Source: Acidobacteriota bacterium | GTDB lineage: Bacteria > Acidobacteriota > CAIWXX01 | Assembly: GCA_016191015.1 (NCBI GenBank) | Contig: JACPPM010000200.1 | Span: 21,954 to 85,953, forward strand | Length of the DNA stretch: 64,000 nt | Direction of reading: 5' to 3' | In this document: positions 30,625 through 64,000 of the stretch, one piece after another | Layout: each line of letters opens with the position of its first letter | Numbering within the stretch: position 1 is the first letter of the stretch | The notes under the pieces: generated by a model | What the model was told of the DNA's origin: nothing | Database searches by the model: none | What the model saw: the letters and a program-made list of their open reading frames with translations, nothing else | Position numbers and translations under genes: made by a program

Positions 30625-30701
30625 GCGCCCGTAGCTCAGTTGGATAGAGCGACTGACTACGAATCAGTAGGTCGGGGGTTCGAGCCCCTCCGGGCGCTCC
30701 A
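30625..30701 (+). tRNA. tRNA-Arg (anticodon ACG)
   Basis: Manual cloverleaf fold. Acceptor stem GCGCCCG/CGGGCGC, D-arm GCTC..GAGC, anticodon stem ACTGA/TCAGT with loop CTACGAA, T-loop TTCGAGC, 3' CCA. Confidence 0.9.
30653..30701 (+). repeat. attL: 49-bp direct repeat, the 3' half of tRNA-Arg
   Basis: ctgactacgaatcagtaggtcgggggttcgagcccctccgggcgctcca is repeated at 54382-54430 with 3 mismatches. Confidence 0.85.
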
Positions 30702-30747
30702 TTCCCCTCAATAACTTAGCGGTCTCAGCGGGACGGCGAGATTTCTC

Positions 30748-30768
30748 GGGTACCACCCGGGTACCACC
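30748..30768 (+). promoter_or_regulatory. Tandem GGGTACCACC arm-type repeat, left end of element
   Basis: gggtaccacc-c-gggtaccacc, 47 bp inside attL. The same tandem sits near attR. A 15-bp palindrome tgacgcactgcgtca follows at 30789-30803. Confidence 0.6.
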
Positions 30769-35221: not shown

Positions 35222-36570
35222 TGCCGATCGTTAAGGCCGGATTTTCGGCCGGCTTGCACGGCCGGGCATCGCCGGCATCCTGGGGTCGCCGCGTAGCATA
35301 TCTCGGCCGCGATCAGGATCAGGCCGCACTGCTCCTGGCGCGAGACGGCACGATCTCCAAGACCGGGGCGCTAGCAGAGCTGGGCGGTAAGCAGGCCGAG
35401 TATCACGAGGCGATCGTCGCGTGGACCCCAAATGAATGCCGCGCACTGGCCGAGCGATTCGGATCAGCCGAAGCGGCGAAGGAGGGGATCGCGAGGAGTA
35501 TCGCGCGCAACCTCGCGGGTGAAGACGGCCATTATGTCGTCGCGATCCACGCCAAACGCCTCAGCACCGGCGAGCAGGCGTGGCATCTCCACGTCGCCAT
35601 CCAGGGACGGGAGCCCGCGCAGTTTCTGGGCGCGAGAGGCCGGGCCCAGCGTGCCGTCGATGCCGCATGGCGCGAATGCGCCCCGAAGCTGCCGATCAAC
35701 GACTGGACCAAGCACGCCCAGTTTGTCTGCATTCGTGCGGAGCTTTGCGCTCTGCAGACCCAGCAGAATAAGCTCTCCGGCGAGCGACGCAACGCACTCC
35801 GGCGAGCGCGCGGGCCGGCAAAGCTCGAGGTCGACAAGGAGTATGCCAGCAAGATGCAGGCGCTTGTCGAGCGTCGCCATGCCCTCGAGCTTGCGGCCGC
35901 CCAAGCCCGGTACGATGCTCGCGGGATCGGCGGGGGCGCGGAGCACCTTGTGGAGATCGAGCGCGCCGACATGCGTCGAGCGCAGGCGCTCTCGGTCATC
36001 GAGCGCAGATCGGAGGCGGTCCGGGCGCGGGGTGGTGCACTGACCCGTACGGATCGCCTGTGGCGCTCCGCACGCGCACAGGACGCCGGCGTCGGCCGAG
36101 GTATCGCGGCCGCCCTACGGGGCGTCCAGCGCGCCCAGCGGGGCATATCTGCCGGGATATCAGGCATGGCCGCGTCGGCGGCGATGTCGGCTCTGCCTGC
36201 GCCCATGCGGGCGATGGTCACGCCATTCCGCCTGGCCGGCCGTCTGATGGCCACCACGACACAGCCGGCACAGCGGGACGTCGAGAGTCCGCTTGCGCCG
36301 CTCCGCGCGCTGCGCCCCGTCATGGCAGGACTACGGTGTGTCGTGCACCTGGGGTCCGCTGTGCTCGGGCCTGCTCTCGCGCCCGCCAAGATTCCAACGG
36401 AGGTCGTCAGCTCCCCACGCAGCGCGATCACCAATGCTGCCGAGCACGCCGCCGGAGCGGCCGTGGGAGTCGTCGGCGGACCCATAGCTGGTGGCGCTGC
36501 CAAGGCGCTGACCGCTGTTCTGCGGGTCCTGAGTTCCGCCCCCCAAGTCATCCAAGAAGTCGAGATATAA
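35221..36570 (+). CDS. Relaxase/mobilization nuclease
   Basis: Follows mobC with a TGATG overlap. His-rich motif HLHVAIQGRE plus an Ala-rich C-terminal tail. Family assignment is tentative. Confidence 0.55.
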   Translation: MPIVKAGFSAGLHGRASPASWGRRVAYLGRDQDQAALLLARDGTISKTGALAELGGKQAEYHEAIVAWTPNECRALAERFGSAEAAKEGIARSIARNLAGEDGHYVVAIHAKRLSTGEQAWHLHVAIQGREPAQFLGARGRAQRAVDAAWRECAPKLPINDWTKHAQFVCIRAELCALQTQQNKLSGERRNALRRARGPAKLEVDKEYASKMQALVERRHALELAAAQARYDARGIGGGAEHLVEIERADMRRAQALSVIERRSEAVRARGGALTRTDRLWRSARAQDAGVGRGIAAALRGVQRAQRGISAGISGMAASAAMSALPAPMRAMVTPFRLAGRLMATTTQPAQRDVESPLAPLRALRPVMAGLRCVVHLGSAVLGPALAPAKIPTEVVSSPRSAITNAAEHAAGAAVGVVGGPIAGGAAKALTAVLRVLSSAPQVIQEVEI

Positions 36571-36592
36571 CGTCACGGAAAAGGAGTCACCA

Positions 36593-37117
36593 ATGAGCAC
36601 CCATGACCCGAATCCACCCCAAGGGGGGGCTGTGGTTCATCCGCGCGACAACATGTCGCCCCCATCGCCTCAGGCACTGGCTGCAGAAGAGAGGCGTTTG
36701 CGTCGATGGATCGATCAATGGTACCGAGATCGCGCGCCCGGCCGGTGCGCCCGATACGGATCCCAGATGCTGGATCCGGTGTGGCTGGAGATCGAGGCCA
36801 CGGACTGGGGCTGGTGCTCAGTGCCTCTCATCTCCGTGGCGGAGTCATGGCGTAGGCACGGCCTCACGCGGCGTCTCCTCCAGTACCTGGAGTCGTTGCG
36901 AGGGATGCGGACGATCATGGTGAGGAATGTTCACTCTGACCATCTCCGAGAGGCTCTGGCGCGCTACGGTTACACAGATCTCGGCGGCGGCACGCACTGG
37001 CGGCGAGATTTGAGGTCGCCGGCGTCTTGGCTGCGTGGTCTCGCCATGCTCCGTTCTTGGTCGCGCCAGGTGTCATCGCCAGGACTCAGGGCAGGCGATG
37101 TTGCGCGGCGTGACTGA
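36593..37117 (+). CDS. Hypothetical protein (possible GNAT-like fold)
   Basis: AAGGAG ribosome-binding site. Weak motif-A-like RRHGLTRRLLQYL. Confidence 0.35.
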   Translation: MSTHDPNPPQGGAVVHPRDNMSPPSPQALAAEERRLRRWIDQWYRDRAPGRCARYGSQMLDPVWLEIEATDWGWCSVPLISVAESWRRHGLTRRLLQYLESLRGMRTIMVRNVHSDHLREALARYGYTDLGGGTHWRRDLRSPASWLRGLAMLRSWSRQVSSPGLRAGDVARRD

Positions 37118-47796: not shown

Positions 47797-48093
47797 TCGC
47801 CGCCATGCCCCGGTGCGAAGACGGAGTGCCGGCAGTCACGACGAGTCCTTCGCCGTCGCTCGCCTGGGCCCGCTCTCACGCCCCGCGTCTCGGGCACGCT
47901 TCGCTCTCCGGCTCCGTTGCAGACGGGTCCCCTCCCGCCTTCGGCGGGAACCCTCCCCATCTTCACTCCGCCTCCGGCCTGAGAAGCGGGGACGCGGGCC
48001 TTTAGGGCGAGGCGACGGCGAAGGACTCATCGTGAGACAGGCGGCGGCAGACAATACACAGTAATGCGTGTATTGCCGCCAAAGCCGCACGAG

Positions 48094-48120
48094 GCGCCGG
48101 CTCAGGATCTATCGTGAGAC
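48094..48120 (+). repeat. Element-internal repeat family B, partial copy (…caggatctatcgtgagac)
   Basis: Matches the 3' part of the copies at 48967-49034 and 50277-50335. Confidence 0.55.
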
Positions 48121-48135
48121 AACCGTAAGAACTCC

Positions 48136-48948: not shown

Positions 48949-48966
48949 CCGTTGGAACTGTAGGTC

Positions 48967-49034
48967 CCCCTATCCCCCGCCCGGGGTAACGCGGAACGGA
49001 GGCTCGGGCGCCGGCGCAGGATCTATGGTGAGAC
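48967..49034 (+). repeat. Element-internal repeat family B, full copy 1
   Basis: cccctatcccccgcccggggtaacgcggaacggaggctcgggcgccggcgcaggatctatggtgagac. Confidence 0.6.
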
Positions 49035-49063
49035 GGGGGAACGGAACAGCCGGCGAATGAAGT

Positions 49064-49990: not shown

Positions 49991-50276
49991 TGTCAAGTCG
50001 CGCCGTGCGTCGCCGGCGCGAGAGAGCGACAGCGGAGTTCGGACCGCCGCTCGCCCAGAGTCCCTGGGCTCCCTCCTCAACCCCGCTGGGCGGGGACCCG
50101 ATGCCCCCTAGCCCCGTCGGGGAACCCGGACCCAGCGAGGGCGATGGACGACGAGGTGTCAGGACCTTCGCGCAGATCCACCAGGACCGTGGCTTCGAGG
50201 AGCCGCGGAATTCCGGACCTGCGCGCGGCCGGGCGGCCGTGCTACTCCAGGGGCAAGCCCCTGGACCCATGTCCCA

Positions 50277-50335
50277 CCTATCCCCCGAAGGGGGTAACGC
50301 GGACGGAGGCTCCGGCTCAGGATCTATCGTGAGAC
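50277..50335 (+). repeat. Element-internal repeat family B, full copy 2
   Basis: cctatcccccgaagggggtaacgcggacggaggctccggctcaggatctatcgtgagac. Confidence 0.6.
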
Positions 50336-50600
50336 ACGATCGATCGATCGACATAGCCCCGGCCGCGGGATCGGAAAGGAGTTGACTTTTGACCCCACAA
50401 GTGCCAACCTTCGCCTATGGGTACCCGTAGGGCAGACAGGACCGCGTTAGATCTGCGCGAAGCACTCGGCGCGTCGCAAGAGACATCGGATTTCTCCACC
50501 GCCTCGGGCCGGAAACGAATCAAGGCGAGGTCGTTGTGGAGTTCGATGGGCGGTTTTACCGCATTACGAAATTCGATTCAGCGTGAATTAGGAGGATCTC

Positions 50601-50978: not shown

Positions 50979-51325
50979 AGAGAGAAGCCGGAAGGACGCT
51001 CTCCGGGAAAAGCAACCTGAAGAAGAACGCCAGAGGAACTACGATCGCTAGACCGTTGACGGCGAAGCAGCGGCGGGAGGTTGCGGCGCTCGCTCAGCGA
51101 CCCGACGGCGAGATCGACTACTCCGACATTCCACCGCTCGAAGACAAGTTCTGGAGGGACGCCGTCCGGAATCCTTTTTATCGTCCGGTCAAGCGACAGC
51201 TCACCGTGCGGTTGGACGTGGATGTGCTCGTGTGGCTGCGCAGCCAGGGCAGGGGATACCAGACGAGAATCAACGCCCTGCTGCGTGAGGAGATGCTCAA
51301 GAGGATGGGCAAGAAAACAGCGTAG
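50957..51325 (+). CDS. BrnA/DUF4415-family antitoxin-like protein
   Basis: Family motif DYSDIPPLEDKFWRDAV...LDVDVL.WLRSQGRGYQTRINALLR. Start codon uncertain (possibly TTG). Confidence 0.5.
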   Translation: MARGRDIEREAGRTLSGKSNLKKNARGTTIARPLTAKQRREVAALAQRPDGEIDYSDIPPLEDKFWRDAVRNPFYRPVKRQLTVRLDVDVLVWLRSQGRGYQTRINALLREEMLKRMGKKTA

Positions 51326-51404
51326 CAAATCCCCCCAGACCCCCCTCCTAATACTAATATGCGCTGTCTCCGCAGCGCATCTATCTGATGCGGCTCAGAG
51401 TGAT

Positions 51405-51442
51405 GTTACCTGGGAGGTAACATTTGTTACCTCCCAGGTAAC
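51405..51442. other. Perfect 17-bp-stem hairpin (gttacctgggaggtaac-attt-gttacctcccaggtaac)
   Basis: Inverted repeat read directly. Lies between the brnA-like gene and brnT. Confidence 0.6.
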
Positions 51443-51480
51443 ATCCCTTCTCCTCGTGCCCGTCCTGCCATCCGGGCCAC

Positions 51481-51545
51481 GGTGAACCACTGCCCCCCCC
51501 CTGGGGGTGGAGTCGGCGGCAGAGAGCTTCCGGGATTCCTGCCGT
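51481..51545. repeat. Element-internal repeat family C, copy 1, with a C9 homopolymer
   Basis: gtgaaccactgccccccccctgggggtggag...gagagcttccgggattcctg. Related to 52225-52290, and the core recurs at 33970 and 36620. Confidence 0.6.
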
Positions 51546-51619
51546 GGGACGGTGGCGCTAAGAAGGAGCCCTCGCGCACAGCCCTGCAATTGTAGCTACA
51601 GAAGGAGTTATAATGGTTC

Positions 51620-51903
51620 GTGAGGTTCGCGTGGGATGAAACTAAGAATACGGAGAACATTCGGAACCACGGCTTCGACTTTGCCGATGTGTGGGAGCTC
51701 TTCGAAAATGCACTCCTCGTGGACCTGGATACTCGCGAGATTATGGCGAGGACCGGTGGATAGGGATCGGACTGCTCAAGAGTGTGGCGGTCGTGGCCGT
51801 CGTCGTGTTTGCCGAGAGAGGACCGGAAACCGTGCGAGTCATCTCGCTCACGAAGGCAACGAAGCATGAAAAAGAAAGATACGAAAACGCCGTCAAGGAC
51901 TGA
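51620..51903 (+). pseudogene. brnT: brnT (DUF497 RNase toxin) disrupted by a -1 frameshift
   Basis: The N-terminal part (VRFAWDETKNTENIRNHGFDF...) stops at 51748. The C-terminal part (DYGEDRWIGIGLLKSVAVVAVVVFAERGPETVRVISLTKAT) continues in the -1 frame. Confidence 0.6.
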
Positions 51904-52141
51904 CTGGAAGCGAGTCAAGGCCATGTCCGATCCTGAGATTGATTGCTCCGATGTCCCTGAGCTCGGCGAGGATTTCTTTGCGCGAGCGGTTCTCTGGCCC
52001 GGGCCCAAGAAGCAAATCACTCTACGGCTTGACCCTGACGTCTTGGATTTCTTCAAGCACCAGGGCCGTGGCTATCAACGGAACATCAACACCGTGCTGC
52101 GGCGATACGTCGAGCTCCAAAGGCAGCGACACGCCAGCTAA
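51866..52141 (+). CDS. brnA: BrnA antitoxin
   Basis: MKKKDTKTPSRTDWKRVKAMSDPEID...ITLRLDPDVLDFFKHQGRGYQRNINTVLRRYV. Overlaps the 3' end of brnT. Confidence 0.7.
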   Translation: MKKKDTKTPSRTDWKRVKAMSDPEIDCSDVPELGEDFFARAVLWPGPKKQITLRLDPDVLDFFKHQGRGYQRNINTVLRRYVELQRQRHAS

Positions 52142-52224
52142 AGCCGATTCCTCACAAACGATGGCACGCCCCAGCGTGCCATCGCCTCACCTCGTGACTT
52201 TCTCGGTGGGGCCGGAATGGATGT

Positions 52225-52290
52225 GAACCACAGCCCCCCCCTGAGGGTGGAGGGGGCTGCGGAGAGCTTCCGGGATTCCTGGAGTGGGGC
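52225..52290. repeat. Element-internal repeat family C, copy 2, with a C8 homopolymer
   Basis: gtgaaccacagccccccccctgagggtggagggggctgcggagagcttccgggattcctgg. Confidence 0.6.
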
Positions 52291-52340
52291 GGCAAAGACC
52301 AATCGTCCGGCTCGCCGCGTGAGACAGCTTGAAGACAAGG

Positions 52341-52691
52341 CTAGCGCAGTGGCAGGTACTGGACGCGCTGTGCCAGTTCGCCCGGTTCGGCGAGCACGGC
52401 CAGCAGGTGGAGATCGGCGACGAACTGCCCGATTGTCATGCGCAATTGGTGGGCATAGATCACGCCGGTGAACGGGCGTCCTGCATTCTGCCACGCGTGA
52501 GCATGCCTAAGGAAGTCCTCGTCTTGGGTCACCACCACCCTCTCGAGCTCGCAAGCTCTGGCAAGCACGGCAGCGTCGCTCTCGCCAACGTGTCCGTCCT
52601 GCTGGACACTCAAAACATCTATGCCAGCCATGCTCAGAGCCGCGGTGACCGCGGCCGGCACGTGCTCGTCCATGTAGAGCCGCAGGCCCAC
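52341..52691 (-). CDS. DUF5615-family (PIN-like) putative toxin
   Basis: About 116 aa with a conserved acidic/His core. Paired with an upstream DUF433 gene through an ATGA overlap. Confidence 0.55.
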   Translation of the reverse strand: MGLRLYMDEHVPAAVTAALSMAGIDVLSVQQDGHVGESDAAVLARACELERVVVTQDEDFLRHAHAWQNAGRPFTGVIYAHQLRMTIGQFVADLHLLAVLAEPGELAQRVQYLPLR

Positions 52692-53050
52692 TACAAGCGG
52701 CCCTCAGCCTTCATGCGAGCAAGGAATGGAGATTCGCCTTCTCGCGCGCGAAGATCCTCCACGCGTCGGACCTGGGCACCGATTTCTACATCCATCTCAG
52801 GCTTGTGATCGTAGTAGTACGAGAGCGCGGCATGAATCTGCGCCAGGCTGATCTGCCGATAGTGCTGAATGAAGATCTCCTCGGGGCTCCATCCGTGGGC
52901 GAGGTGATCGAGCGCGATCTCCACAACTTTGCAGGAGGTTCCCTCGATCGTGGCTCGTCCCTCCGCGTCGAGCCGGATATGTGGAACTGACGTGACAGCT
53001 TTGGACAACTTGCTTTCCTCCTCCCTCGAATATACTACGTGCTCTCTCAT
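52691..53050 (-). CDS. DUF433-family putative antitoxin
   Basis: DUF433-like region IRLDAEGRATIEGTSCKVVEIALDHLAHGWSPEEIFIQHYRQISLAQIHAALSYY. Confidence 0.55.
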   Translation of the reverse strand: MREHVVYSREEESKLSKAVTSVPHIRLDAEGRATIEGTSCKVVEIALDHLAHGWSPEEIFIQHYRQISLAQIHAALSYYYDHKPEMDVEIGAQVRRVEDLRAREGESPFLARMKAEGRL

Positions 53051-54204
53051 CCAGCTTTGCTGATCGGCACAATTTTCTCGGTCGTTCGTCTCTCAACGGC
53101 CTCGCGCCGTTCCTTGATATCCATCGGAGAGTAATGCAGCTCCGCAATCCGGACGTCGGTCCGCAGCACGCGTGCCGCCATAAGCAACCCAGCTTGCTGC
53201 GTGATGTCACGGCCGAAGGTTCTCCGGAGGTCGTGGATGTTAACATTCGGGATGTGTGCTGTCGTCCGGATCCAGTTCCAGTGGTTCTTCAAGTCTTGTC
53301 TCCCGCGATCCGGATCTTGACCGGGAAACACGAAAAGAGAACGCCTGGGTACTTGCCTGAGCTTCCCGATCGTATACGCCGGGAGTGGGACTTCCTGGGA
53401 TTTGCCGGCCTTTGTTTGCGGAAGTGTCCAGATTGCTCGCTCGAAGTTGATGTCATCCCACTTCGCCCTCAGTACTTCGCTCTTGCGAGCTCCCGTCGTC
53501 ACAAGCATGAGGAACGCGGTGCGTACGAAGGGTTCGGGAATTTGCTCGATCGCGATGAGGACGCGCTCGAGCTCCTCTTCAGTCAACGCCCGCTTGCGAG
53601 GGGGCGGCTCGGGGTACCGACGGACCTTTCTCGCCCGATTCTCCATGATCAAGCTGCGCCTCCATGCCTCTTGCAGGCATCCGCTCACACTGGCCAGAAA
53701 CCTGTTGGCCGCGGCGTTGTGACCTTCAGCAGCCAGCCTCGCTGCCGGCTTCTCGATGTCTTCCACGCTCACTTGGTCGAGTCTCTTCTCTCCGAATTCT
53801 GCCGATGCCTTGCGGAGATAATTACGGTCCTCTGATGGCCTTTTCTTCCGCAAAGCTATTCGCTCGAGGTACTCGGTGATCCATTCGCGCATCAGGGGTA
53901 TCGCCTGACGGCGTTGCTTATCAGCGAGAGGGTCGCCGCCCTTGATCACGCACGCGAGCTTTTCGATCGCCATCTGACGTGCGGCTTCAACCGTGAGGGG
54001 ACCGTAAAGACCGAGAGTGATTCTGCGCCTCGTCTTGCGACCGCCGTACCGCAGCACGAATGCCTTACGACCACGCGGAGCCTCCTTGCTCCCGGGATAG
54101 GCAACGACACCGAGACCGGGGATCTCGTTGTCCCAGACGTAAGCACGATCGCCCGCGTTTGTCTCGAGAGAGTCAATCAGGCGCTTAGTGAGTCGACCTT
54201 TCAT
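53047..54204 (-). CDS. int: Tyrosine-type site-specific integrase (P4-like)
   Basis: N-terminal arm-binding domain (LTKRLIDSL...AYVWDNEIPGLGVVAYPGS), a core-binding domain, and a C-terminal catalytic domain with a conserved H..R...Y region. Confidence 0.9.
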   Translation of the reverse strand: MKGRLTKRLIDSLETNAGDRAYVWDNEIPGLGVVAYPGSKEAPRGRKAFVLRYGGRKTRRRITLGLYGPLTVEAARQMAIEKLACVIKGGDPLADKQRRQAIPLMREWITEYLERIALRKKRPSEDRNYLRKASAEFGEKRLDQVSVEDIEKPAARLAAEGHNAAANRFLASVSGCLQEAWRRSLIMENRARKVRRYPEPPPRKRALTEEELERVLIAIEQIPEPFVRTAFLMLVTTGARKSEVLRAKWDDINFERAIWTLPQTKAGKSQEVPLPAYTIGKLRQVPRRSLFVFPGQDPDRGRQDLKNHWNWIRTTAHIPNVNIHDLRRTFGRDITQQAGLLMAARVLRTDVRIAELHYSPMDIKERREAVERRTTEKIVPISKAG

Positions 54205-54245
54205 CCTACTCCTCCTGTGTCAGTGCGCTGGTCAGTAGGTTGCTC

Positions 54246-54266
54246 GGGTACCACCAGGGTACCACG
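54246..54266 (+). promoter_or_regulatory. Tandem GGGTACCACC arm-type repeat, right end of element
   Basis: gggtaccacc-a-gggtaccacg, in the same orientation as the left-end copy at 30748-30768. Confidence 0.6.
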
Positions 54267-54381
54267 CACTCATAGTAACCCGCCGACACCAGAATACGCT
54301 TCACACGACTAAGTGTAACATAACTATGAATGTCGTCAACACCCAAATACGCCCGGCAACGTATAAAACGTTTACAGCCTA

Positions 54382-54430
54382 CTGACTACGAATCAGTAGG
54401 TCGGGAGTTCGAGCCTCTCCGGGCGCGCCA
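54382..54430 (+). repeat. attR: partial tRNA-Arg 3' half
   Basis: ctgactacgaatcagtaggtcgggagttcgagcctctccgggcgcgcca, with 3 mismatches to the intact tRNA. Confidence 0.85.
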
Positions 54431-54564
54431 TGTTTTCAATATTTTGCGAGAGATCGACCGGTTCGATGCTTCGGCTGGCGACCGCCGGGCAACCAGTGGG
54501 GTGGCAACGGCCACGGATGGCGCGCTTCACCAGCTCTCGCGACGCGATCTCCTCGCACACAATG

Positions 54565-54836
54565 GGTAGGTCCCGCCCCGGCAGCGGGAGACTGCGGCCC
54601 TCGCCCAGAGACCCGACAGCGACATCGACTATTCCGACATTCCCCCGCTCGAAGGCAAATTCTGGAGGACCGCCGCCCGAAATCATTTTTACCGCCCGAT
54701 CAAATGACAGCTCACCGTACGGTCGGACGCGGATGTGCACGTGTGGCCGCGCAGCCAGGATGGGGGTAACAGACCGGTATCAACGCCCTGCCGCCTGAGG
54801 AGATGCTCAAGAGCATGGGCAAGAAGACAGCATAGC
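54565..54836 (+). pseudogene. Decayed brnA-like (DUF4415) antitoxin copy
   Basis: About 85% nucleotide identity to 51040-51325. Contains an in-frame TGA and an indel. Lies outside attR. Confidence 0.6.
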
Positions 54837-54890
54837 GAGGACTCGAAATCCCCCCACAGCCCCCGTTGGGGTCGAGTCCGTCGCGCGCGT

Positions 54891-55526
54891 CTATGATCGT
54901 GCGGCCTGTGCCACCAATTGATCGAATCTGGCGATCAATCTCTTCGGAGCGTGCTTGAGCAAGTAGTCACGAACGCGCTGCGCGTCGATCCCTACGAGGA
55001 TAAGCTGCGACACATCCCGGTGATCATCCGGCCGGGGCGATTTGAGTTTCAGATAGACCACAACCTCAACGGGGGCCACCGCGATGCCCTCGCTACTGGG
55101 CGCGCTGGCGAACGCTTCCGCGAGGTGCTCTTCGCCCGGTCCGATCGAGAGATAGTCGATCGGCACGTCACCGACCATGAGGGGCACCTCCGGGTGCATC
55201 GTCACGACGCCGCCCTCGTGCTTGATGAATGCTTCCTCGCCCACAAGGTAGTCGACGTCTTTCGTCGTCCGGGGGTGACCGTAAGCTCCAACCGCCATCC
55301 CCCCGACGAGAATGTGTCGCACCCCGGCCTTCTTGAGCAGCTCGTTGGAAGTTCTGGCAGCGTTGACTATGCGCGGCGCGACCAGGTCGAAGACTCGGTT
55401 GAGGTCAACCTCGGCATCCTCGGTTGGCGGATTGATCTGGATCCGAGCAGAAGGGCCAGACGCGTCGGTATCGTCGGGGGGCTCTCCGCCGGGATCTTGC
55501 GGAGCTCCGAATCGTATGCTGGGCAT
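54891..55526 (-). CDS. Hypothetical nucleotidyltransferase-fold protein
   Basis: GG.A...G..R.T.D.D-like motif (LVGGMAVGAYGHPRTTKDVDYLV). Confidence 0.4.
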   Translation of the reverse strand: MPSIRFGAPQDPGGEPPDDTDASGPSARIQINPPTEDAEVDLNRVFDLVAPRIVNAARTSNELLKKAGVRHILVGGMAVGAYGHPRTTKDVDYLVGEEAFIKHEGGVVTMHPEVPLMVGDVPIDYLSIGPGEEHLAEAFASAPSSEGIAVAPVEVVVYLKLKSPRPDDHRDVSQLILVGIDAQRVRDYLLKHAPKRLIARFDQLVAQAARS

Positions 55527-55566
55527 GCTCTCACTTTACCACCAATCCAGCTCGCTGATCGGCGCG

Positions 55567-55757
55567 ATCTTCACTGTCGTGCGTTTCTCTGCCGCCTTGG
55601 GCGGTCCTCTGGCCTGGCCCAAAGAAGCAGATCACCTTGCGACTTGACCCCGACGTCTTGAAGTTCTTCGAGCGCCGGGGCCGTGGCTATCAACGGAACA
55701 TCAATACAGTGCTCAGGCGGTACGTCGAGCTCCAAGAGCACCGATGCGCCGGCTGAG
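55567..55757 (+). pseudogene. 5'-truncated brnA remnant
   Basis: About 88% identical to the 3' part of brnA at 51960-52141. Encodes ...PKKQITLRLDPDVLKFFERRGRGYQRNINTVLRRYVELQE. Confidence 0.6.
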
Positions 55758-55773
55758 ACGGCGCGCCCTGGCT

Positions 55774-56343
55774 TCAAACCTGTGCAATTCCAGGATGCTC
55801 CCGCGACAGAAAATTCAAGCCCGCGTACACCTTCAGGTCGATCAGGGCGCCGTCGCGCCGTTTCTGATCGAGCCACTCCGGGATCCCGGCCAGCGGAACC
55901 GCGTGAACGGCGATGTCCTCGTGCTGATCGCCGCCGCCCTCGCCGGACCTGACCAGGCCGCTCGCTCGAAAGACCGCAATCACCTCACTCGAAACCCCCG
56001 CCGAGACGACACCTTCCGTCAACAGGGTCAACGACCGCGCCTGGTAGCCCGTCTCTTCGAACAACTCCCGCGCGGCTGCCGCCGCCAGGTCCTCCTGGCC
56101 GCCGGGGTGTTGATCACCAGCCAGACCGGCCGGGAGCTCGACGACCCGCTTCTGAACCGGCGGGCGGTACTGTTCGACCAGGATTAGCTTGTTGTCATCG
56201 GTGACCGCGATGATACCGACAATGCCGCAGATCTTCTGTCGTTCGACGTACTCCCAGGCGCCTCTGCGGACAAACCGCAGGTGCTTGCCCTCGGCGATGA
56301 GGATTTTTTCCCTGGAATCCAGATGACGCGGGGTGTGCCTCAC
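55774..56343 (-). CDS. NUDIX hydrolase (ADP-ribose pyrophosphatase-like)
   Basis: Nudix box GLAGDQHPGGQEDLAAAAARELFEETGY. GTG start at 56343 preceded by GGAGG. Longer ORF extensions were rejected. Confidence 0.8.
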   Translation of the reverse strand: MRHTPRHLDSREKILIAEGKHLRFVRRGAWEYVERQKICGIVGIIAVTDDNKLILVEQYRPPVQKRVVELPAGLAGDQHPGGQEDLAAAAARELFEETGYQARSLTLLTEGVVSAGVSSEVIAVFRASGLVRSGEGGGDQHEDIAVHAVPLAGIPEWLDQKRRDGALIDLKVYAGLNFLSREHPGIAQV

Positions 56344-56371
56344 AGTACCTCCAACTGCCTCTCCGTGGGCC

Positions 56372-57508
56372 TCAACCAGCCGCCGATCGCAGCGGCTCGT
56401 CGGGCGAGTAAGGCAGAATGCCGCGGACGGCCTCGCCCTCGGACAACCGCACCAGCACGAAGCCGTGCGACCGTGGCGCCGGTGCGTCATAGTTCGCCAC
56501 GAAACGGTAGAGATGTCCCTCAAACTCGATCGTGCGCGCATTCGTCCATGTGGATTTTGGACGGCACGACTCCACCTTGAGTTGCCAGCCGTCCGCTCCA
56601 TCGCCGTGGATGACACGATCGACGACCAGAGGCGAGGCTGGCGTCAGCCGTTGTTTCCGCCACGACCGCACGAACACGGGGAGGAACCCCTCTCCGCCTG
56701 CATCATGCAGCAGCACGTCCTCCGGATCATAGTCGATGACTCCACGGAACGCCTCACCTTCTGCAGGGCGTCGAAGCAGGAACACATAGGGCCGCTTCGA
56801 CGGGCGCCTCTTCTTCCCCCCACGCACCACCGTGAAGAACTCCCCCTCGAAGCGAACGGTCCTCGGTGGCGTCCAGTCGGGCTTCGTCCTGCACGAAGCG
56901 ACTCGCAGGTCCCACCCACGCGAACCGATCGCTCTGGTGACGTGGTCACGCACGAGAGGGATCCTGAGGTCATGACTGAGCCGCTTCAGACGGGCGGCGG
57001 CGCGATCCAGGAGGGCCAGCGGTAGTGTCCCGGGAGTTTGCCCGGCGTGCCCGGCGGCTAGCGCCCGCACCAACCCCTCGATCACAAAGAAGCTCAAGAT
57101 CCATGTAACGGGATGGAAGACGAACGCGACGAACCCCGAGAAGCCCGAGCTGACGGCAGCAAACTCGACCGGAATGTCTTGTCCCTTATCCACGGCGGCC
57201 GCGAGCAGCGGGTCCATCTGGCTGTCCACCGCGATATGGATCACCCTCATGTACCAGTCAAAGAGCACGAAGAATCCAACGAGGAATTCAACCAGCCCCG
57301 ACGTCACCGTGGCCGGACCCCACTCGACGGCAAGATCGCGAAAGACCCGACGACGCCACTGGCCGGGCAAGAGGGCGAGGAAGGGACCCGCCAGGAAGGT
57401 CCACGCCGCTGATCTCCGATCCACCGAGAAACCCTTCAGGCCGGATATTTTCCCGAGATGTAATCGGTGAGCATCCGGATTTCGAACTCCTGGTTTCTGC
57501 TGGCCCAT
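56372..57508 (-). CDS. Membrane protein with two tandem ~65-aa C-terminal repeats
   Basis: N-terminal TM helices. The repeats W[DQ]L[RK]V[AE]SCR.K..WT..RT[VI][RE]FEG share pattern. Confidence 0.45.
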   Translation of the reverse strand: MGQQKPGVRNPDAHRLHLGKISGLKGFSVDRRSAAWTFLAGPFLALLPGQWRRRVFRDLAVEWGPATVTSGLVEFLVGFFVLFDWYMRVIHIAVDSQMDPLLAAAVDKGQDIPVEFAAVSSGFSGFVAFVFHPVTWILSFFVIEGLVRALAAGHAGQTPGTLPLALLDRAAARLKRLSHDLRIPLVRDHVTRAIGSRGWDLRVASCRTKPDWTPPRTVRFEGEFFTVVRGGKKRRPSKRPYVFLLRRPAEGEAFRGVIDYDPEDVLLHDAGGEGFLPVFVRSWRKQRLTPASPLVVDRVIHGDGADGWQLKVESCRPKSTWTNARTIEFEGHLYRFVANYDAPAPRSHGFVLVRLSEGEAVRGILPYSPDEPLRSAAG

Positions 57509-57876
57509 CGCACCAAGTCGCCAATCGAGATCATCCCCACTACTTTGCCCTCATTCACGACAGGCAAGTGCCGGCACCGCCTCTGCGTCATGATGGCCAT
57601 CGCTTCGGCTGCGGCCGTTCCAGGCTCGATGCAGACCAGTTCCCTGGTCATCACATCGGCCACTTTGGTTGTCGATGGGTCCTTTCGTGTCAGGATCACT
57701 CGTGACATCACGTCCCGCTCGCTGAATATCCCCGCGGGCGCCCCGTCCCTTTCGACCAGCACAGCCCCGATCTTGTGTGCGCACATTGCCTCGACCGCCT
57801 GCAAAACAGTCGCCTCCGCTGGTGTCGTGAGCACAGACGATCCCTTTTCGCGAAGAAGGGTTCCGACGGTATCCAT
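57436..57876 (-). CDS. CBS-domain pair protein
   Basis: Two CBS motifs. GGGAGG ribosome-binding site 7 nt before the ATG at 57876. Confidence 0.8.
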   Translation of the reverse strand: MDTVGTLLREKGSSVLTTPAEATVLQAVEAMCAHKIGAVLVERDGAPAGIFSERDVMSRVILTRKDPSTTKVADVMTRELVCIEPGTAAAEAMAIMTQRRCRHLPVVNEGKVVGMISIGDLVRWASRNQEFEIRMLTDYISGKYPA

Positions 57877-57947
57877 CGCATTGCCTCCCGATGTGTTCTG
57901 ATGCTTAGAGTATGAAAGAAAGGGAGCCTCGTTTGCAAGGGGCTGAG

Positions 57948-58811
57948 TCATTTGCCGCGGTCTCGAGCCCGCCGCTTCCTGGTCCCTCGGCGCGGCTTTC
58001 GCTCCTCCCTGATTCCCTCGACCGCATCGGCCGCCTGTCCCGCCTGCTCGCCATACCTCTGCTTGAGATAATAGAGATGGTCCATCGTGAAAAGATAGAG
58101 ATCCGTCTCGGTGTCGTCGGGAAAATCCGCCATGATCTCGCTCGTCCGAATCGTCTCGACCACCGGGCCGTATACCGTGTCCCTCCATGAAGCCACGGCC
58201 TCCTCCCATGTAACATCCCGGCCCAGCTCGATCCCACGGAAATACCGATGGACGCTGATGTGATCCAGGAGACGCTCGTATCCATTGCCTTGGGTCGTTC
58301 TGTAATCATCCACACGATCGGCCACGAGTCCTGTCGTCTCCAGGAAATCCGCCTGCCCCTCACGCAACACCACATCCTGGACCGTGGCATCTGCCGGCAG
58401 TGGCACGGGGGTAAGAAACTCCTTCACGCGCGCCTCGATCGAGGGCGCCGCATTGACTCGCGCCACCGACACCCGATGATGGCCATCGACCACGAAGTAT
58501 GCCTCACCAACCAGATACAGCTCGACCGGCGGAAACCCTCGCTGTCCCTCAGCAAGCTCGCTGATCTCCTCCCACCGCTCACGCAGCGACTCCTCGCGCG
58601 GGAGAAACGCCCGGCTGAACTCGCGCTCGCGTCCGATCGTCCCGACAATCCGGTCGATGGGCACCTCCTGCGTTCCGCGATCGACCACATGCTTGAGGCG
58701 CAGCCGCTCCCGCACATCGTCGAACCTCAAAAGGTCCTCGGGGCGGCGCAGCAGGCGGGCCAGAAGGTCGCGCATCAGGGCGGCGAGGCGTGCGGAGTCG
58801 AACCGGCTCAT
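57948..58811 (-). CDS. ParB-like nuclease domain protein
   Basis: ParB/Srx motif YFVVDGHHRVSVAR. Confidence 0.55.
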   Translation of the reverse strand: MSRFDSARLAALMRDLLARLLRRPEDLLRFDDVRERLRLKHVVDRGTQEVPIDRIVGTIGREREFSRAFLPREESLRERWEEISELAEGQRGFPPVELYLVGEAYFVVDGHHRVSVARVNAAPSIEARVKEFLTPVPLPADATVQDVVLREGQADFLETTGLVADRVDDYRTTQGNGYERLLDHISVHRYFRGIELGRDVTWEEAVASWRDTVYGPVVETIRTSEIMADFPDDTETDLYLFTMDHLYYLKQRYGEQAGQAADAVEGIREERKPRRGTRKRRARDRGK

Positions 58812-58861
58812 GATAACATCCTCGTGCGGCGCTGCGATGCCGCGCACAGGAGGCGCCTGTC

Positions 58862-60526
58862 ATGTCTCGCCATCATGCATTCATCATCCTCTGGCTCGCC
58901 CTTATTCTTAACACATGCACGCCGGCCACGACCGGCGAACATCCCGCTCGGCCAGCGCTCGCGCCGGATGCCGGCGGCGTCCCCCAGTGGAACAACGGCT
59001 GGTCTCGAGGAGGCGTCTTCTATGAGCTCTTCGTCAGAAGTTTTGCCGATTCCAACGGAGATGGGATCGGCGATCTGCGCGGGCTCATCTCGAAGCTGGA
59101 CTACCTCAACGACGGCAATGCCACGAGCACAACCGACCTGGGCGTCGACGCTCTGTGGCTCATGCCGATCTTCAAGTCTCCGAGCTACCATGGCTACGAC
59201 GTGACCGACTACGAGACGATCAATCCCGAGTACGGGACCAACGATGATTTCGTGAAGCTTTGTCAGGAGGCACACAAACGCGGGATCCGGATTATCATCG
59301 ACTATGTGATCAACCACTCGGCCGCGGATCATCCCTGGTTTATCGACTCTGCGTCGTCGCCGAATTCGGCTCGCCGCAACTGGTACGTGTGGAGCCCCAC
59401 GGATTTGGGATGGAAACAGCCCTGGGGCGGGAACTACCCGACGTGGCACCCGATGAATGGAGCCTATTTCTACGGCGTCTTCTGGAGCGGGATGCCGGAC
59501 CTGAACTTCACGACCCTTGCGGTCCGCAAGGAGATCAAGCGCGTGGCCAAGGTGTGGCTCACACGCGGAGCCGATGGGTTCAGGCTGGATGCGACCCGCT
59601 ACCTGATCGAAACGGGCCCCGGCCCCGGACAGGCGGACGTCGTCGACACTCACAACTTCCTGAAGGAGCTCTCCAGACACGTTCGCATCGTCAAGCCTGA
59701 AGCGACGCTGGTCGGCGAGAACTGGACCGAGACGCCGATCATAGCGACATATTTCGGCAGCACCTCCGTTGTGGCCGGTGGCGACGAGCTGCCGATGAAT
59801 TTCAATTTCCCGCTCTCCGACAGGATGATCGAGGGGGTCAGTGAGGCGAACGCGACGGGGATCGCGGAAAAAATCGCCGAGGTGAAGGCGCTCTACCCGG
59901 CCGGAGCCACCGACGCTCCGTTCCTCACCAATCACGATCACGTCCGTATCGCGACGCAGCTCGCCAGCGACGCTGGCAAACTCCGCAACGCGGCAGCCGT
60001 CCTGCTGACCATGCCAGGCTCCCCCTTCCTCTACTATGGCGAAGAGATCGGATTGCAGAACGGCACGACGGGCAATGATGAGGCGAAGCGGACGCCGATG
60101 CCGTGGAACGGGAGCCCGGGCGGCGGGTTCACGACCGGGACGCCGTGGTTTCCGTTTGCGCACGGCCATGAGGTGACCAACGTGGGCGCGCAGACCGGGG
60201 ACCCGAAATCGCTGCTGTCGCGGTATCGGTCCCTCATCCGTGCTCGAAAAAAATCCCCGGCCCTGACGAGCGGCAGCATCGATCTCCTGACCTCCACGAC
60301 CGGCACATCCCCGGTCCTGGCCTTCATGAGATCAGGATCGGGAGAGCGCGTCCTGGTCGTGCACAACCTCAGCGATGGCTTCGCCATCGGTGGCCCGCTT
60401 GCCGTGACAATGACCTCCGCAGAAAAGCTCTTCGCCGATGCGAACGTCGGCGATCCGTCCGGGTCTCCGAACAACATCCGTGTGACTCTCCCGCCGCGAT
60501 CATCGGGCGTCTGGCGGTTGAAGTGA
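58862..60526 (+). CDS. GH13 alpha-amylase-family glycoside hydrolase (secreted)
   Basis: Signal peptide. GH13 regions (DGIGDL.GL..KLDYL, GVDALWLMPIF, GFRLDATRY, EVKAL catalytic region). Confidence 0.9.
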   Translation: MSRHHAFIILWLALILNTCTPATTGEHPARPALAPDAGGVPQWNNGWSRGGVFYELFVRSFADSNGDGIGDLRGLISKLDYLNDGNATSTTDLGVDALWLMPIFKSPSYHGYDVTDYETINPEYGTNDDFVKLCQEAHKRGIRIIIDYVINHSAADHPWFIDSASSPNSARRNWYVWSPTDLGWKQPWGGNYPTWHPMNGAYFYGVFWSGMPDLNFTTLAVRKEIKRVAKVWLTRGADGFRLDATRYLIETGPGPGQADVVDTHNFLKELSRHVRIVKPEATLVGENWTETPIIATYFGSTSVVAGGDELPMNFNFPLSDRMIEGVSEANATGIAEKIAEVKALYPAGATDAPFLTNHDHVRIATQLASDAGKLRNAAAVLLTMPGSPFLYYGEEIGLQNGTTGNDEAKRTPMPWNGSPGGGFTTGTPWFPFAHGHEVTNVGAQTGDPKSLLSRYRSLIRARKKSPALTSGSIDLLTSTTGTSPVLAFMRSGSGERVLVVHNLSDGFAIGGPLAVTMTSAEKLFADANVGDPSGSPNNIRVTLPPRSSGVWRLK

Positions 60527-60553
60527 GCGGCGCCGCGAGGGGAAAGCAATACG

Positions 60554-61501
60554 TCAGTGGCTCGGGATGGGGACAACTCCTGGTAGTTTCACCCGCCGCC
60601 CGTTGCGGAGATCGTAATCCTTCAAAACCTCTTCCTGCTTCTTTCCTTCCGGCACGATGATGTCGATGAGCGGCGGGAGGAGGTTGTCGTCCTCGTAGCC
60701 GCCACCGAAGCGGTCACGCCATGTGCCGGGTGAAACCGGCAATATCATGAGGCTTTCCGGGGCAGCCTCGGCCAGGCCCAAAGTGGCCGGGATGTCGAGG
60801 CGCTGCTGGATGTCGGCTCCGGAGATCGCGACGACATAGCTCCACGAAAGCTTCGCCTGCCCGCCCAGGAACGCCGCCGGCACGAGGAAACGGATCTTCG
60901 GGCCGATGACGCGGATGCGCGTCGGAAAGAAATAGCGGACCTTCACGTCGCGATCGATGGAGGCTTCGATGATCGTGAGCTGGTCGTCGTCGATGGACCC
61001 TCGCTTCTCTTTCATCTCCCGTTTGGCACGCGCTTTCAGGATGCGCCGCAGAGCGTCCTCGGTTTCGAAAGGTCGTGGCGTCAAGCATATGACCTTCTCC
61101 CACGCATGTGCCGGATCGATCTCAGCGCGGCGCCCGGGGAGCGCCTCAACCGAGCCCATGCCGGCTTCGCGATCCGTGTCGATGTAGATGTCGAGATTGA
61201 ATGTATAGAAACCGAAGCGGGCGACGGTGTCGAGAGACGTGCCGGTCGAGTCGATGGTTCGGCGCGCCGTCGGCACGACCGGGCTGGCGAACACAGCCTC
61301 GAACATCGTGCCTTCACCATCGGGGTAAGCGGAGAGCGAGATGAGATCGAGGCTGCCCGGGTGCAAGTCATCCCGGAGCGGATAAGTCATCTTCCCCCAG
61401 CCGTGGTCGTCGCCACGAGGATCGGTGAGCGTGAAGATAGCGTCGCTTGCGAAAGCGACGGGTGATACCGAAAGCATGAGGGTGCAGATGATGATTCTCA
61501 C
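60554..61501 (-). CDS. Secreted glucodextranase-like C-domain protein
   Basis: Signal peptide from the GTG at 61501, with AAAGGA ribosome-binding site. Family placement is tentative. Confidence 0.5.
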   Translation of the reverse strand: MRIIICTLMLSVSPVAFASDAIFTLTDPRGDDHGWGKMTYPLRDDLHPGSLDLISLSAYPDGEGTMFEAVFASPVVPTARRTIDSTGTSLDTVARFGFYTFNLDIYIDTDREAGMGSVEALPGRRAEIDPAHAWEKVICLTPRPFETEDALRRILKARAKREMKEKRGSIDDDQLTIIEASIDRDVKVRYFFPTRIRVIGPKIRFLVPAAFLGGQAKLSWSYVVAISGADIQQRLDIPATLGLAEAAPESLMILPVSPGTWRDRFGGGYEDDNLLPPLIDIIVPEGKKQEEVLKDYDLRNGRRVKLPGVVPIPSH

Positions 61502-61616
61502 GGATGGTCCTTTAATGGCGAGGCCTGATGGCCGGATTGAATGCAAAGTGCAAAATGAAAGAGGGGAGTAGGAGCCTGTGCGCCTACTCCCCTGGAGAGC
61601 ATGTCCCGAATTTCTC

Positions 61617-63947
61617 CTAGAACTGGACCTTCATGAAGGCCTTGAGTCTGTTCTGGGTGAAATCACGTGACTCGAGGCTGTTCCAGCCGCCGAACCGGCC
61701 TTCGAAACCGAGCGAGCCGACGGGAACATTGTGATCGGCCGCGATCTGCTCACTGGCAACTTGCGGCACGAATCCGCCGCCGAAATCAGGATCGAAAGTC
61801 CCGAAGTTGTACTGCCACTCGAGGCCGAACTCGGCGCCGGCCAGAATGTACCGGAACTTCGCCATGAGCTTGTTCTTCGTATGCTTGCCGGACGCCATCT
61901 CGTGCAACTGATAGGCCTGGAAGGCCGTGTTGCCGTCCTTCAGATCCGCGTTGTAGTACTCGTACGTGAGCGATCCGTAGAGATCGCTCGAGAGCTGGTA
62001 GCCGGCCCCGATCTGGAGCATCGTGTAGCTCAGATCGCGATCGTCATCCGAGATGCTGTCGAACGGTTTCCACTTGTTGCCGGTCACACCATTGACCGTG
62101 ATCTCGGGAGGGGCGCCGTACAGATCGGCCGTCGTATTACTACCGAAGTAGTAATGCTTCGATCCATCTGCATTGTACGGCAGGTAGTTCGGATTGTTCA
62201 TGCGCAGGTCGGTCTCGCTGATCCGCTTGATCTTCCCGAACAGGTCGACGCCCTTGCCGACGTTCGCGACGTACTTGAACCTGGCCAGTGCAATGTGGGT
62301 CGTCTTGTCCTGGAACGGCGCGTAGGCCGACCGGAAGTTGTGACCGACGCCCGAATCCACTTCCATAGTCGGATAGTAGCTGTCGAGGATCGGTCGGGTG
62401 TCGTCGCCGAACGCTTGCCAATTGGTGTTGTAGGTAAGGTACGTGTATTCGGCCGCCAGATCGAACGCTCCGGTACCGTAAACCGGGGCCACGGTGACCC
62501 CCTTCCATCCGATGGCGGTTTCGGCCATCGGCTCATCGAAGTCGGTGAACTCGTTGTCGACGTTGATCGTGGCCACCTGCTGAGCGTTCCCGTCCCAACC
62601 GCCGTAGCCGATCCGGGTCGGGTTGCCCTTGAACACGCCGAAGGCCGCGTTCGACGGCCCCGGGAAGGCAAACGCTGAATCGTGTCCTTCGGTCAGGAGC
62701 ACGTCCGCTTCACGCCGTGATGCCATCATCGAGGCGTAATCGGCACCGAAGCTGAACGCTTCGATATTGAGCGACAGACCCGCGCCCATCGGGTCGTTGA
62801 GGTCGAGATTGACCTTCCAAATGTTGTCGTCGTGCTTGCCCTGAATCACGGGCGAGAATCCCGCGATCCCGAACATCCCGGGTTCGGGTTTCGTGTCATC
62901 CTGGTCGACGTCGGTTTCAGAGTTCGAGTGATAGATGGCGGCCCGAATGTCGAACTGCGCACTCGGGTGGATCCCGACCTTCGCGCCGATGACCGCGTTC
63001 TTGAACCGGAACCGTAGATCCCGGCCGTCGTCGAGGTTGAGATCGCGCGCATCGACCTCCTGGTCATTCACGTACTGGAAGATCGCCCCGACGTCGAAAG
63101 TCCGGTTCGGTGTGGCCTTCGCCTGCAGACCATAGGCGGCGTCGGACGCGTGGAGGATGCCAGTGTTGAAATTAGGTCCGGCCCAGAGACGCGGCAGCGA
63201 AATGCGCGTTGCATCCCACGTGAACTTGCGTTCGGCGGCCGAGCCTTGGAAAAGCAGCCCGGCGGCGTTGTCGCGGTCGATATAGCGGAGACGCCCGATG
63301 ACGAACGGATCGAACTGCCCAAAATCGTTCGCGCCGATCGTCGCGGAATCGAGCCAGCTATACCCGGGGGTCAGCGTCACGGCGACACCGCGAAGCTTCA
63401 CATACTGGTTCGAACGCGGATCATACTCACCGCAATCTCCCGATGTGCATCCCTTCGTGATGTCGTTGCGGCCGCCGAACCCGCCGAAATTCGTCCAGAA
63501 GTTCTGGTTGAACCGGCTGTGCAGGCGTGCCTTCACGTCGACCTGCTTGCTCATCTTCGCGCTCAGAAGCAGCTCGACCTCGGATCCCTGCCCGTTGTCG
63601 CTGTAGCCCTCGCCCGGCACTGTTGTGAAGTTGTAGATCGACCCCGAGTCGCGCTGTGTGCCCCAGAGCCACTTGGTGTAGGTGGTGCCGCCCATGACCA
63701 GCTTGGTCGCCGGCGCGGGCGCCGCGGGCCTCATGACCGGCGCTGCCATTGCGGGCGCAGCCTCGGCCGCCGGTGCCACTTCGGCGGCCGCCGCTTCCGC
63801 GGCCGGCGCGTGCCCGGAGAGGTAGACCATCTTCAGCATGGCCTGGCGAACCGGCGTCCCGTCGGGTGCGGCCTCGTAGCCGAGCATCGTGTGCTGCGCA
63901 TCGGCCTCGGCTGCCTCGCCGGCGCCGTTCCCCGCCAGGATGTCCAC
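61617..63947 (-). CDS. Putative outer-membrane beta-barrel protein (porin-like); N-terminal start uncertain
   Basis: C-terminal ...KAFMKVQF ending in Phe. Alternating aromatic/hydrophilic strands. Ala/Pro-rich N-region. Candidate ATG starts at 63887, 63839 and 63830. Confidence 0.55.
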   Translation of the reverse strand: MDILAGNGAGEAAEADAQHTMLGYEAAPDGTPVRQAMLKMVYLSGHAPAAEAAAAEVAPAAEAAPAMAAPVMRPAAPAPATKLVMGGTTYTKWLWGTQRDSGSIYNFTTVPGEGYSDNGQGSEVELLLSAKMSKQVDVKARLHSRFNQNFWTNFGGFGGRNDITKGCTSGDCGEYDPRSNQYVKLRGVAVTLTPGYSWLDSATIGANDFGQFDPFVIGRLRYIDRDNAAGLLFQGSAAERKFTWDATRISLPRLWAGPNFNTGILHASDAAYGLQAKATPNRTFDVGAIFQYVNDQEVDARDLNLDDGRDLRFRFKNAVIGAKVGIHPSAQFDIRAAIYHSNSETDVDQDDTKPEPGMFGIAGFSPVIQGKHDDNIWKVNLDLNDPMGAGLSLNIEAFSFGADYASMMASRREADVLLTEGHDSAFAFPGPSNAAFGVFKGNPTRIGYGGWDGNAQQVATINVDNEFTDFDEPMAETAIGWKGVTVAPVYGTGAFDLAAEYTYLTYNTNWQAFGDDTRPILDSYYPTMEVDSGVGHNFRSAYAPFQDKTTHIALARFKYVANVGKGVDLFGKIKRISETDLRMNNPNYLPYNADGSKHYYFGSNTTADLYGAPPEITVNGVTGNKWKPFDSISDDDRDLSYTMLQIGAGYQLSSDLYGSLTYEYYNADLKDGNTAFQAYQLHEMASGKHTKNKLMAKFRYILAGAEFGLEWQYNFGTFDPDFGGGFVPQVASEQIAADHNVPVGSLGFEGRFGGWNSLESRDFTQNRLKAFMKVQF

Positions 63948-64000
63948 GACATGCGGGTCTGCGTCGCCATCGGTGCCGCCCCCGAACCTGTGCTGACCCT

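Follow-up and report, generated by a model that had tools for sequence, protein, structure and literature searches.

Tandem accretion and decay of integrative elements, involving integrative and conjugative elements (ICEs) or integrative and mobilizable elements (IMEs) together with cis-mobilizable elements (CIMEs), was reportedly described by Pavlovic et al. in 2004 and by Bellanger et al. in 2011. Here we analyzed a 64 kb stretch of DNA from an Acidobacteria metagenome-assembled genome (the window), in which an integrative element of ~23.7 kb (30703–54380) has used a tRNA-Arg(ACG) gene as its target. Beyond the right attachment (att) repeat of this element, attR, a gap of ~1.3 kb holds broken pieces of an older element and one intact toxin-like gene before the first chromosomal gene, a NUDIX hydrolase, begins. 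It is well established that decayed elements can stand in tandem with newly arriving ones at att sites, as accretion and decay of ICEs, IMEs and CIMEs, and the transfer of whole composites is likewise documented (PMC5704250). We conclude that the stretch 54581–55756 is probably inert debris of one or more earlier members of the current element's family at the same tRNA-Arg(ACG) gene.

The locus resembles the known tandem arrangements in that an intact element and a decayed member of its family are direct neighbors at a tRNA 3'-end site, with a common att copy between the two. As in a CIME, the integration and transfer genes of the relic are gone and only ~55–60 nt of an integrase 3' end are kept, while three pieces, starting 150 nt from attR, share 76–83% DNA identity with the element. 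In contrast to a CIME, which keeps both att sites, the relic has only the copy at 54381–54431 and no outer one. It further differs in being only 1.2 kb long, rearranged, largely pseudogenized and not cis-mobilizable.

The element itself is similar to tRNA-targeting islands with tyrosine integrases (P4-like, Arm-DNA-bind_3). Its integrase (53047–54204, minus strand) contains PF13356 and PF00589, the tRNA is restored by the element's copy, and in comparison with such islands the element shows nothing unusual. The target is the tRNA-Arg(ACG) gene at 30625–30701 on the plus strand (ARAGORN; 67.6 bits with the Rfam tRNA model), which was the only match in an Rfam scan of the window. Its 5' part ends …GGATAGAGCG and its 3' part is now element-derived. 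A 51-nt direct repeat reaching from the anticodon stem to the tRNA 3' end forms attL (30652–30702, plus strand; repeat search and blastn) and recurs as attR (54381–54431, plus strand; repeat search and reading of the sequence). Both copies are identical at 48 of 51 positions, and two of the three differences, as read from the sequence, are a compensatory pair in the T-stem (G-C to A-T). Either version thus yields a valid tRNA half, which is what one would expect if the element supplies its own copy. The integrase gene sits at the end of the element distal to the tRNA gene. An exact-motif search located the 9-mer GGGTACCAC four times in the 64 kb, with one tandem pair inside each element end on the plus strand (30748–30767, starts at 30748 and 30759; 54246–54265, starts at 54246 and 54257), the two starts being spaced 11 nt. 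These pairs are probably arm-type integrase binding sites. Taken together, the att repeats and the paired 9-mers at both ends show that the element and attR are placed correctly.

Two of the three pieces in the gap derive from genes for BrnA, the antitoxin of the BrnT/BrnA type II toxin-antitoxin systems (PF04365/PF14384; Brucella BrnTA). The element carries two such genes on its plus strand, an orphan brnA1 (51017–51325; PF14384 E-value 4e-15; NCBI protein P0042) and brnA2 (51866–52141, 91 aa; PF14384 E-value 2e-15; P0046). The maximal open reading frame (ORF) of brnA1 begins at 50957, and the 102 aa of P0042 imply a start at 51017. Both genes are intact ORFs above the curated PF14384 cut-off and thus clear members of the BrnA family, and the relic fragments are their homologues.

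The first piece, copy 1, is a brnA1 pseudogene at 54581–54835 on the plus strand, delimited by blastn and a codon table. In blastn, 54581–54864 matched 51070–51345 with 82.1% identity over 285 columns with 2 gaps (E-value 3e-78), and the ungapped core 54581–54766 reached 84%. The gene is disrupted by an in-frame TGA (54705–54707), a 1-nt deletion at 54758 and an in-frame TAA (54767–54769), and it has no usable start codon, with a TAG at about 54567. Among its codon changes 22 are non-synonymous and 18 synonymous. The similarity passes the stop codon (54833–54835) by ~28 nt into an 'aaatcccccc' tract (54846–54856, matching 51329–51339). This tract belongs to a non-coding tail at 54836–54888 on the plus strand (blastn up to 54864, nhmmer beyond), which also contains part of a repeat core: the element has four copies of a ~70-nt repeat with the core ACCACAGCCCCCCC-TGGGGGTGGAGTCGGC, including one downstream of each brnA gene. 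The best non-training nhmmer match to this repeat in the window is 54854–54885, directly behind copy 1; the match is weak on its own (E-value 0.24), and its position is suggestive of a partial copy. An antisense ORF of 115 aa (54393–54740, minus strand) spans copy 1 and was called as a gene in one independently assembled contig; it is spurious.

The second brnA piece, copy 2, is the 3' half of brnA2 (55601–55756, plus strand; blastn). Here 55601–55754 matched 51986–52139 with 83.1% identity over 154 nt, ungapped, with an E-value of 2e-41. Copy 2 consists of 51 codons in frame up to a TGA stop (55754–55756). The 5' half of brnA2 is missing, and there is no ATG, GTG or TTG upstream in the same frame. 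Its codon changes are mostly synonymous (14 versus 8 non-synonymous), which indicates that copy 2 was still functional while it diverged and lost its 5' half only afterwards. The stop codon of the NUDIX gene lies 17 nt beyond that of copy 2. Another antisense ORF, of 101 aa (55571–55876, minus strand), runs across copy 2 and is likewise spurious.

Directly in front of copy 2 lies the third piece, the tail end of an integrase gene from the same family as the element's (55545–55605, minus strand; blastn), comprising the last ~20 codons (~55–60 nt). Against the same strand of the element (53049–53110) the identity was 76% over 62 nt (E-value 5e-5). The fragment matched a sister element slightly better (79% over 67 nt, E-value 4e-8), and since this match is independent we consider the integrase remnant real. 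The sister element is a 2.2 kb contig from another metagenome (L047) encoding an integrase (P0163) that is 87% identical to that of the element at the protein level. At the DNA level the contig shares 86.4% identity with the window over 52227–54414, and it stops short of the brnA genes. At 86% DNA identity it shows that the element's family has lineages about as divergent as the relic. Apart from this contig, scanning metagenome contigs with the element's integrase gave best local identities of 28–43%, integrases at 44–50% identity (L051, L052) were accompanied by unrelated cargo with no tRNA on the contig, and a scan of viral contigs with BrnA1 gave no match.

An initial annotation of this DNA had placed a brnA-like copy with an in-frame TGA and an indel at 54565–54836 (about 85% identity), with similarity continuing into a downstream aaatcccccca-type repeat, and a brnA2 3' half without its 5' half at 55567–55757 (about 88%). 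Both copies and the extension into the repeat are confirmed, at the positions and identities given above: the left edges move to the right by 16 and 34 nt, respectively, and 55567–55600 is not brnA but belongs to the integrase fragment.

The specificity of this relationship was assessed by blastn of 54300–56000 against the window and of the whole element against both flanks. Only three element-like pieces were found outside the element in the 64 kb, all within the 1.2 kb between attR and the NUDIX gene. The remainder of the 30 kb left and 8 kb right flanks showed no other resemblance to the element at the DNA or protein level. Each brnA fragment matched only its own counterpart; this one-to-one matching arises because brnA1 and brnA2 share no nucleotide similarity, their proteins being 51% identical. 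The resemblance is thus not restricted to short protein motifs but is present at the nucleotide level, far above chance.

BrnA proteins are widespread, and the fragments might in principle be old chromosomal toxin-antitoxin genes with no tie to a mobile element. We repaired the translations of the fragments and searched 5.8 billion proteins. BrnA2-type proteins at 70–81% identity are very common, and the closest outside gene of this type sits in a plain chromosomal brnTA locus. However, this gene is only 73% identical to copy 2 in DNA, in comparison to 83% for the element. At the protein level, the nearest relative of copy 2 is the element's BrnA2 (86% over 50 residues; next 80–81%), and the nearest relative of copy 1 is the element's BrnA1 with 78%, the next best reaching only 60%. 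A mere family resemblance also leaves unexplained why the homology reaches non-coding DNA, why an integrase fragment lies between the copies and why both paralogues occur in the element's order and orientation. We regard this explanation as very improbable.

Since the sequence comes from a metagenome-assembled genome, we also considered that reads from the element of a second strain had been mis-joined at attR, an assembly or binning artefact. Indeed, the assembly graph of one sample (SRR12113390) breaks inside attR, where its contigs L046 and L001 share exactly 30 nt (k-1; 54383–54412). In contrast, two independent Logan assemblies from different runs reproduce the region with 100% (L001) and 99.97% (L002) identity, and in L002 an uninterrupted sequence links the NUDIX gene to the integrase by way of the relic and attR. 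An artefact is therefore hardly credible. Possible causes of the break are further tRNA-Arg genes present in the metagenome and heterogeneity of the population at this site. We rejected it as a sign of an empty integration site, because the break point is misplaced for an empty-site branch and other tRNA-Arg genes could cause it.

The region past attR had initially been read as the eroded remnant of an earlier, related element. The homologies, their extension into non-coding DNA, the integrase stub and the otherwise empty flanks all support this, and judged from the sequence a relic of at least one earlier related element is well supported.

Between copy 1 and the integrase fragment lies an intact gene of 211 aa (54891–55526, minus strand). 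It gave no match in Pfam, including the AbiEii/DUF1814 model, nor in NCBIfam or PADLOC. An AlphaFold2 model built on an alignment of 41 homologues had a mean predicted local distance difference test value of 90.4. With Foldseek, the best matches in the PDB were 8an5 and 8an4, MenT1 of M. tuberculosis (E-values 4e-6 to 4e-5; template modeling (TM) scores 0.47–0.59), followed by other minimal nucleotidyltransferases. The family profile matched 8an4 as the only PDB entry (E-value 8e-8), over the N-terminal 43 positions only. Reading the sequence revealed a G-G-x(n)-D-x-D motif, VGGMAVGAYGHPRTTKDVDYLV, with D90 and D92. The nucleotidyltransferase (NTase) fold that had been proposed for this gene is thus borne out by the predicted structure, which supports a fold closest to MenT1.

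MenT1 (Rv0078A) and the AbiEii-AbiGii toxins share with this protein a minimal nucleotidyltransferase core and a C-terminal helical domain. The likeness is distant, with only 19–22% identity and a TM score of about 0.5–0.6. Unlike MenT and AbiEii systems, the NTase has no Pfam AbiEii match and no upstream antitoxin gene: between 55527 and the NUDIX gene there is no ORF with a start codon on the minus strand. The neighborhoods of NTase homologues contain toxin-antitoxin genes (HicAB, MazE-PIN, AbiEii) and no conserved partner gene. The closest homologue (P0002, 80% identical) is located at 1069–1641 of contig L036 (Logan SRR22388270). It reads KCVEYLV where the window's protein and most of the family read KDVDYLV or KDVDFLV, and thus the first of its putative catalytic aspartates has apparently been lost. 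The NTase gene is the sole intact gene of the relic and may be functional.

The alignment with L036 defines the ORF plus a leader of ~25 nt (about 54891–55550) as a separate cassette. A similarity involving TGAGAGAGCA at the junction of integrase and NTase was dropped, as this alignment assigns the stretch to the NTase leader. The cassette begins at the would-be stop codon of the integrase, which is where the DUF433-DUF5615 pair starts in the present element. Different cassettes at the integrase stop codon indicate that cargo was exchanged there.

This arrangement bears on the possibility of a segmental duplication in situ, in which segments of the present element would have been duplicated to the far side of attR and would have decayed there. 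The pieces do adjoin the element and have the same orientation as their counterparts. However, the present element contains no NTase cassette fused to an integrase end. Furthermore, the 14 synonymous versus 8 non-synonymous changes of copy 2 point to purifying selection on a working gene in another lineage, and the divergence of ~17% equals that between lineages of the family, as seen with the sister element. We therefore consider such a duplication improbable.

For the debris of an earlier element we propose the following history. An older relative would have integrated at the same site, using the same pairing of tyrosine integrase and tRNA-Arg. It would have carried brnA1- and brnA2-type genes and, directly after the integrase stop, the MenT1-like NTase cassette in place of the DUF433-DUF5615 pair of the present element. 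Deletions, at least one of which would have joined the integrase 3' end to the middle of brnA2, would then have removed the integrase, the att site and the replication and transfer genes, and brnA1 would have decayed by point mutation. Finally, a newer relative would have entered the restored tRNA gene and pushed the relic beyond the new attR. As the relic lies wholly within the gap between attR and the NUDIX gene, an earlier integration at this tRNA is its most economical origin. From this position we infer an arrival by tRNA integration; how many older elements there were, and in which sequence the events took place, is inferred as well. Repeated occupation of the tRNA-Arg(ACG) gene by a single family of plasmid-like integrative elements is very probable.

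Several observations weigh against this history. The relic is not collinear with the element: its order is brnA1 pseudogene, NTase, integrase 3' end and brnA2 3' half, so that the last two stand in the reverse of the element's order. A single simple deletion is insufficient to produce this; at least two to three deletions or rearrangements, or two older elements, are needed. The initial annotation had suggested a search for a further degenerate copy of the tRNA 3' half to the right. By local alignment, no third copy was detected in the 9.5 kb from 54432 to 64000, where the best score was 13 compared to maxima of 11–15 for shuffled sequences; likewise, neither att version had a match above shuffles in the left flank or in the element's interior. 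The relic contains no arm-type GGGTACCAC sites. The 150-nt spacer behind attR (54432–54580), which has no likeness to the element or to any fetched locus, showed no homology to the element's left end (p about 0.27). An intact element with the order brnA1-NTase-integrase was not found, the NTase contexts in L036, L037/L038 and around P0032 being without integrase or brnA. Neither did we find a related genome in which the site is empty or differently filled: the best NUDIX homologue in a contig scan of species-representative genomes was 50–54% identical, and exact-protein look-ups of NUDIX and NTase returned only the same locus, from two runs. Thus, the initial proposal is right in that the remnant of a relative is present; its further claim, that the current element arrived last in a tandem array at tRNA-Arg, has only partial support, as there is no further tRNA half and the gene order is not collinear.

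The junction of integrase 3' end and brnA2 3' half could have arisen by a deletion between two successive older elements or by a tandem duplication of the segment from brnA2 to the integrase that was followed by deletions. At the junction, a short similarity (GCGGT/GCCGT-TC) would fit illegitimate recombination, and the ~70-nt direct repeats could have removed a brnT-brnA2 block.

The same features allow for a composite or non-tRNA origin, in which the debris is real and there was no independent earlier integration at this tRNA. Either the relic came along with the current element and the outer att site was lost later, or a single ancestor underwent tandem duplication of the segment from brnA2 to the integrase and subsequent deletions. 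The junction is what one would expect from a tandem duplication or circular permutation of 51986–53110, a second attR is absent, the ~70-nt repeats behind brnA1 and brnA2 could mediate the loss of brnT-brnA2, and transfer of whole composites has precedent in the literature (PMC5704250). On the other hand, the relic has diverged from the element by 17–24%, in comparison to 3 differences in 51 positions between the att copies, the cargo behind the integrase is not the same, being NTase in the relic and DUF433-DUF5615 in the element, and as many events are required as for serial integration. We consider this origin unlikely, and retain an earlier element at this tRNA as the preferred explanation.

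A further, doubtful possibility concerns the NTase. It could have been domesticated and kept by selection after its carrier decayed, as a member of an unnamed stand-alone family without linked antitoxin that might have a role in, for example, tRNA modification or defence. In that case, the ~70-nt repeats and the integrase stop would mark a hot spot of cassette exchange.

The brn genes of the element differ from BrnTA systems in that the orphan brnA1 stands alone and the reading frame of brnT is broken, while the relic retains only the brnA1 pseudogene and the truncated stub of brnA2. A -1 frameshift near 51740 interrupts the toxin pseudogene (51620–51903, plus strand; partial PF04365 match and three-frame translation), which scores 31.7 bits against a cut-off of 34.5. 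Its reading is …DTRE|IMARTGG* in frame 1 and continues with DYGEDRWIGIG…KERYENAVKD* in frame 3, with brnA2 intact downstream, and the frameshifted sequence is 100% identical in the independent assembly L046. In the region examined there is no BrnT upstream of brnA1 and no brnT in the relic, so that a working BrnT toxin partner is found nowhere.

The four ~70-nt repeats were mapped by repeat search and nhmmer to 33935–34003 and 36565–36643 (minus strand), 51479–51557 downstream of brnA1 and 52220–52299 downstream of brnA2, just before the 3' end of the DUF5615 gene (both plus strand). A further copy lies where the contig of the sister element ends. The chromosomal flanks, 38 kb in total, contain none except the weak partial one at 54854–54885, and a consensus fold received no covariation support. 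The repeat may be a recombination or cassette boundary. Between the C-rich tract behind brnA1 and the first ~70-nt repeat lies a stretch of ~155 nt without counterpart in the relic, containing a near-perfect 50-nt palindrome, GTTACCTGGGAGGTAACATTTGTTACCTCCCAGGTAAC (51399–51448, plus strand); it may be an insertion or an operator.

The other genes of the element, annotated with Pfam and NCBIfam, include the replication genes AAA_25, RepC and RepB-primase, a type IV secretion system coupling protein, a TrbL/VirB6-like gene and ParA, in addition to the two brnA antitoxin genes, the DUF433-DUF5615 pair and the tyrosine integrase. Around the ParA gene, families of short intergenic direct repeats of ~30 nt with 81–97% identity were found by repeat search (48009–48121, 49005–49035 and 50306–50336; 48966–48995 and 50274–50303), which may be iterons or partition sites. 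The NUDIX hydrolase gene beyond the relic (55774–56343, minus strand; PF00293) encodes a protein whose homologues align up to residue 185 of 189.

For annotation, 54581–55756 should be marked as pseudogenes or remnants and the antisense ORFs there disregarded as spurious. The intact MenT1-like NTase is of some independent interest, as its family has no curated model. Accretion and decay at tRNA sites is a known phenomenon, of which this locus is an ordinary new example from an uncultivated phylum. Its significance is modest: it provides a snapshot of erosion in which the toxin is lost first, the antitoxin genes persist for longer as they decay and only a stub is left of the integrase, and it makes an exchange of cargo visible exactly at the integrase stop codon.

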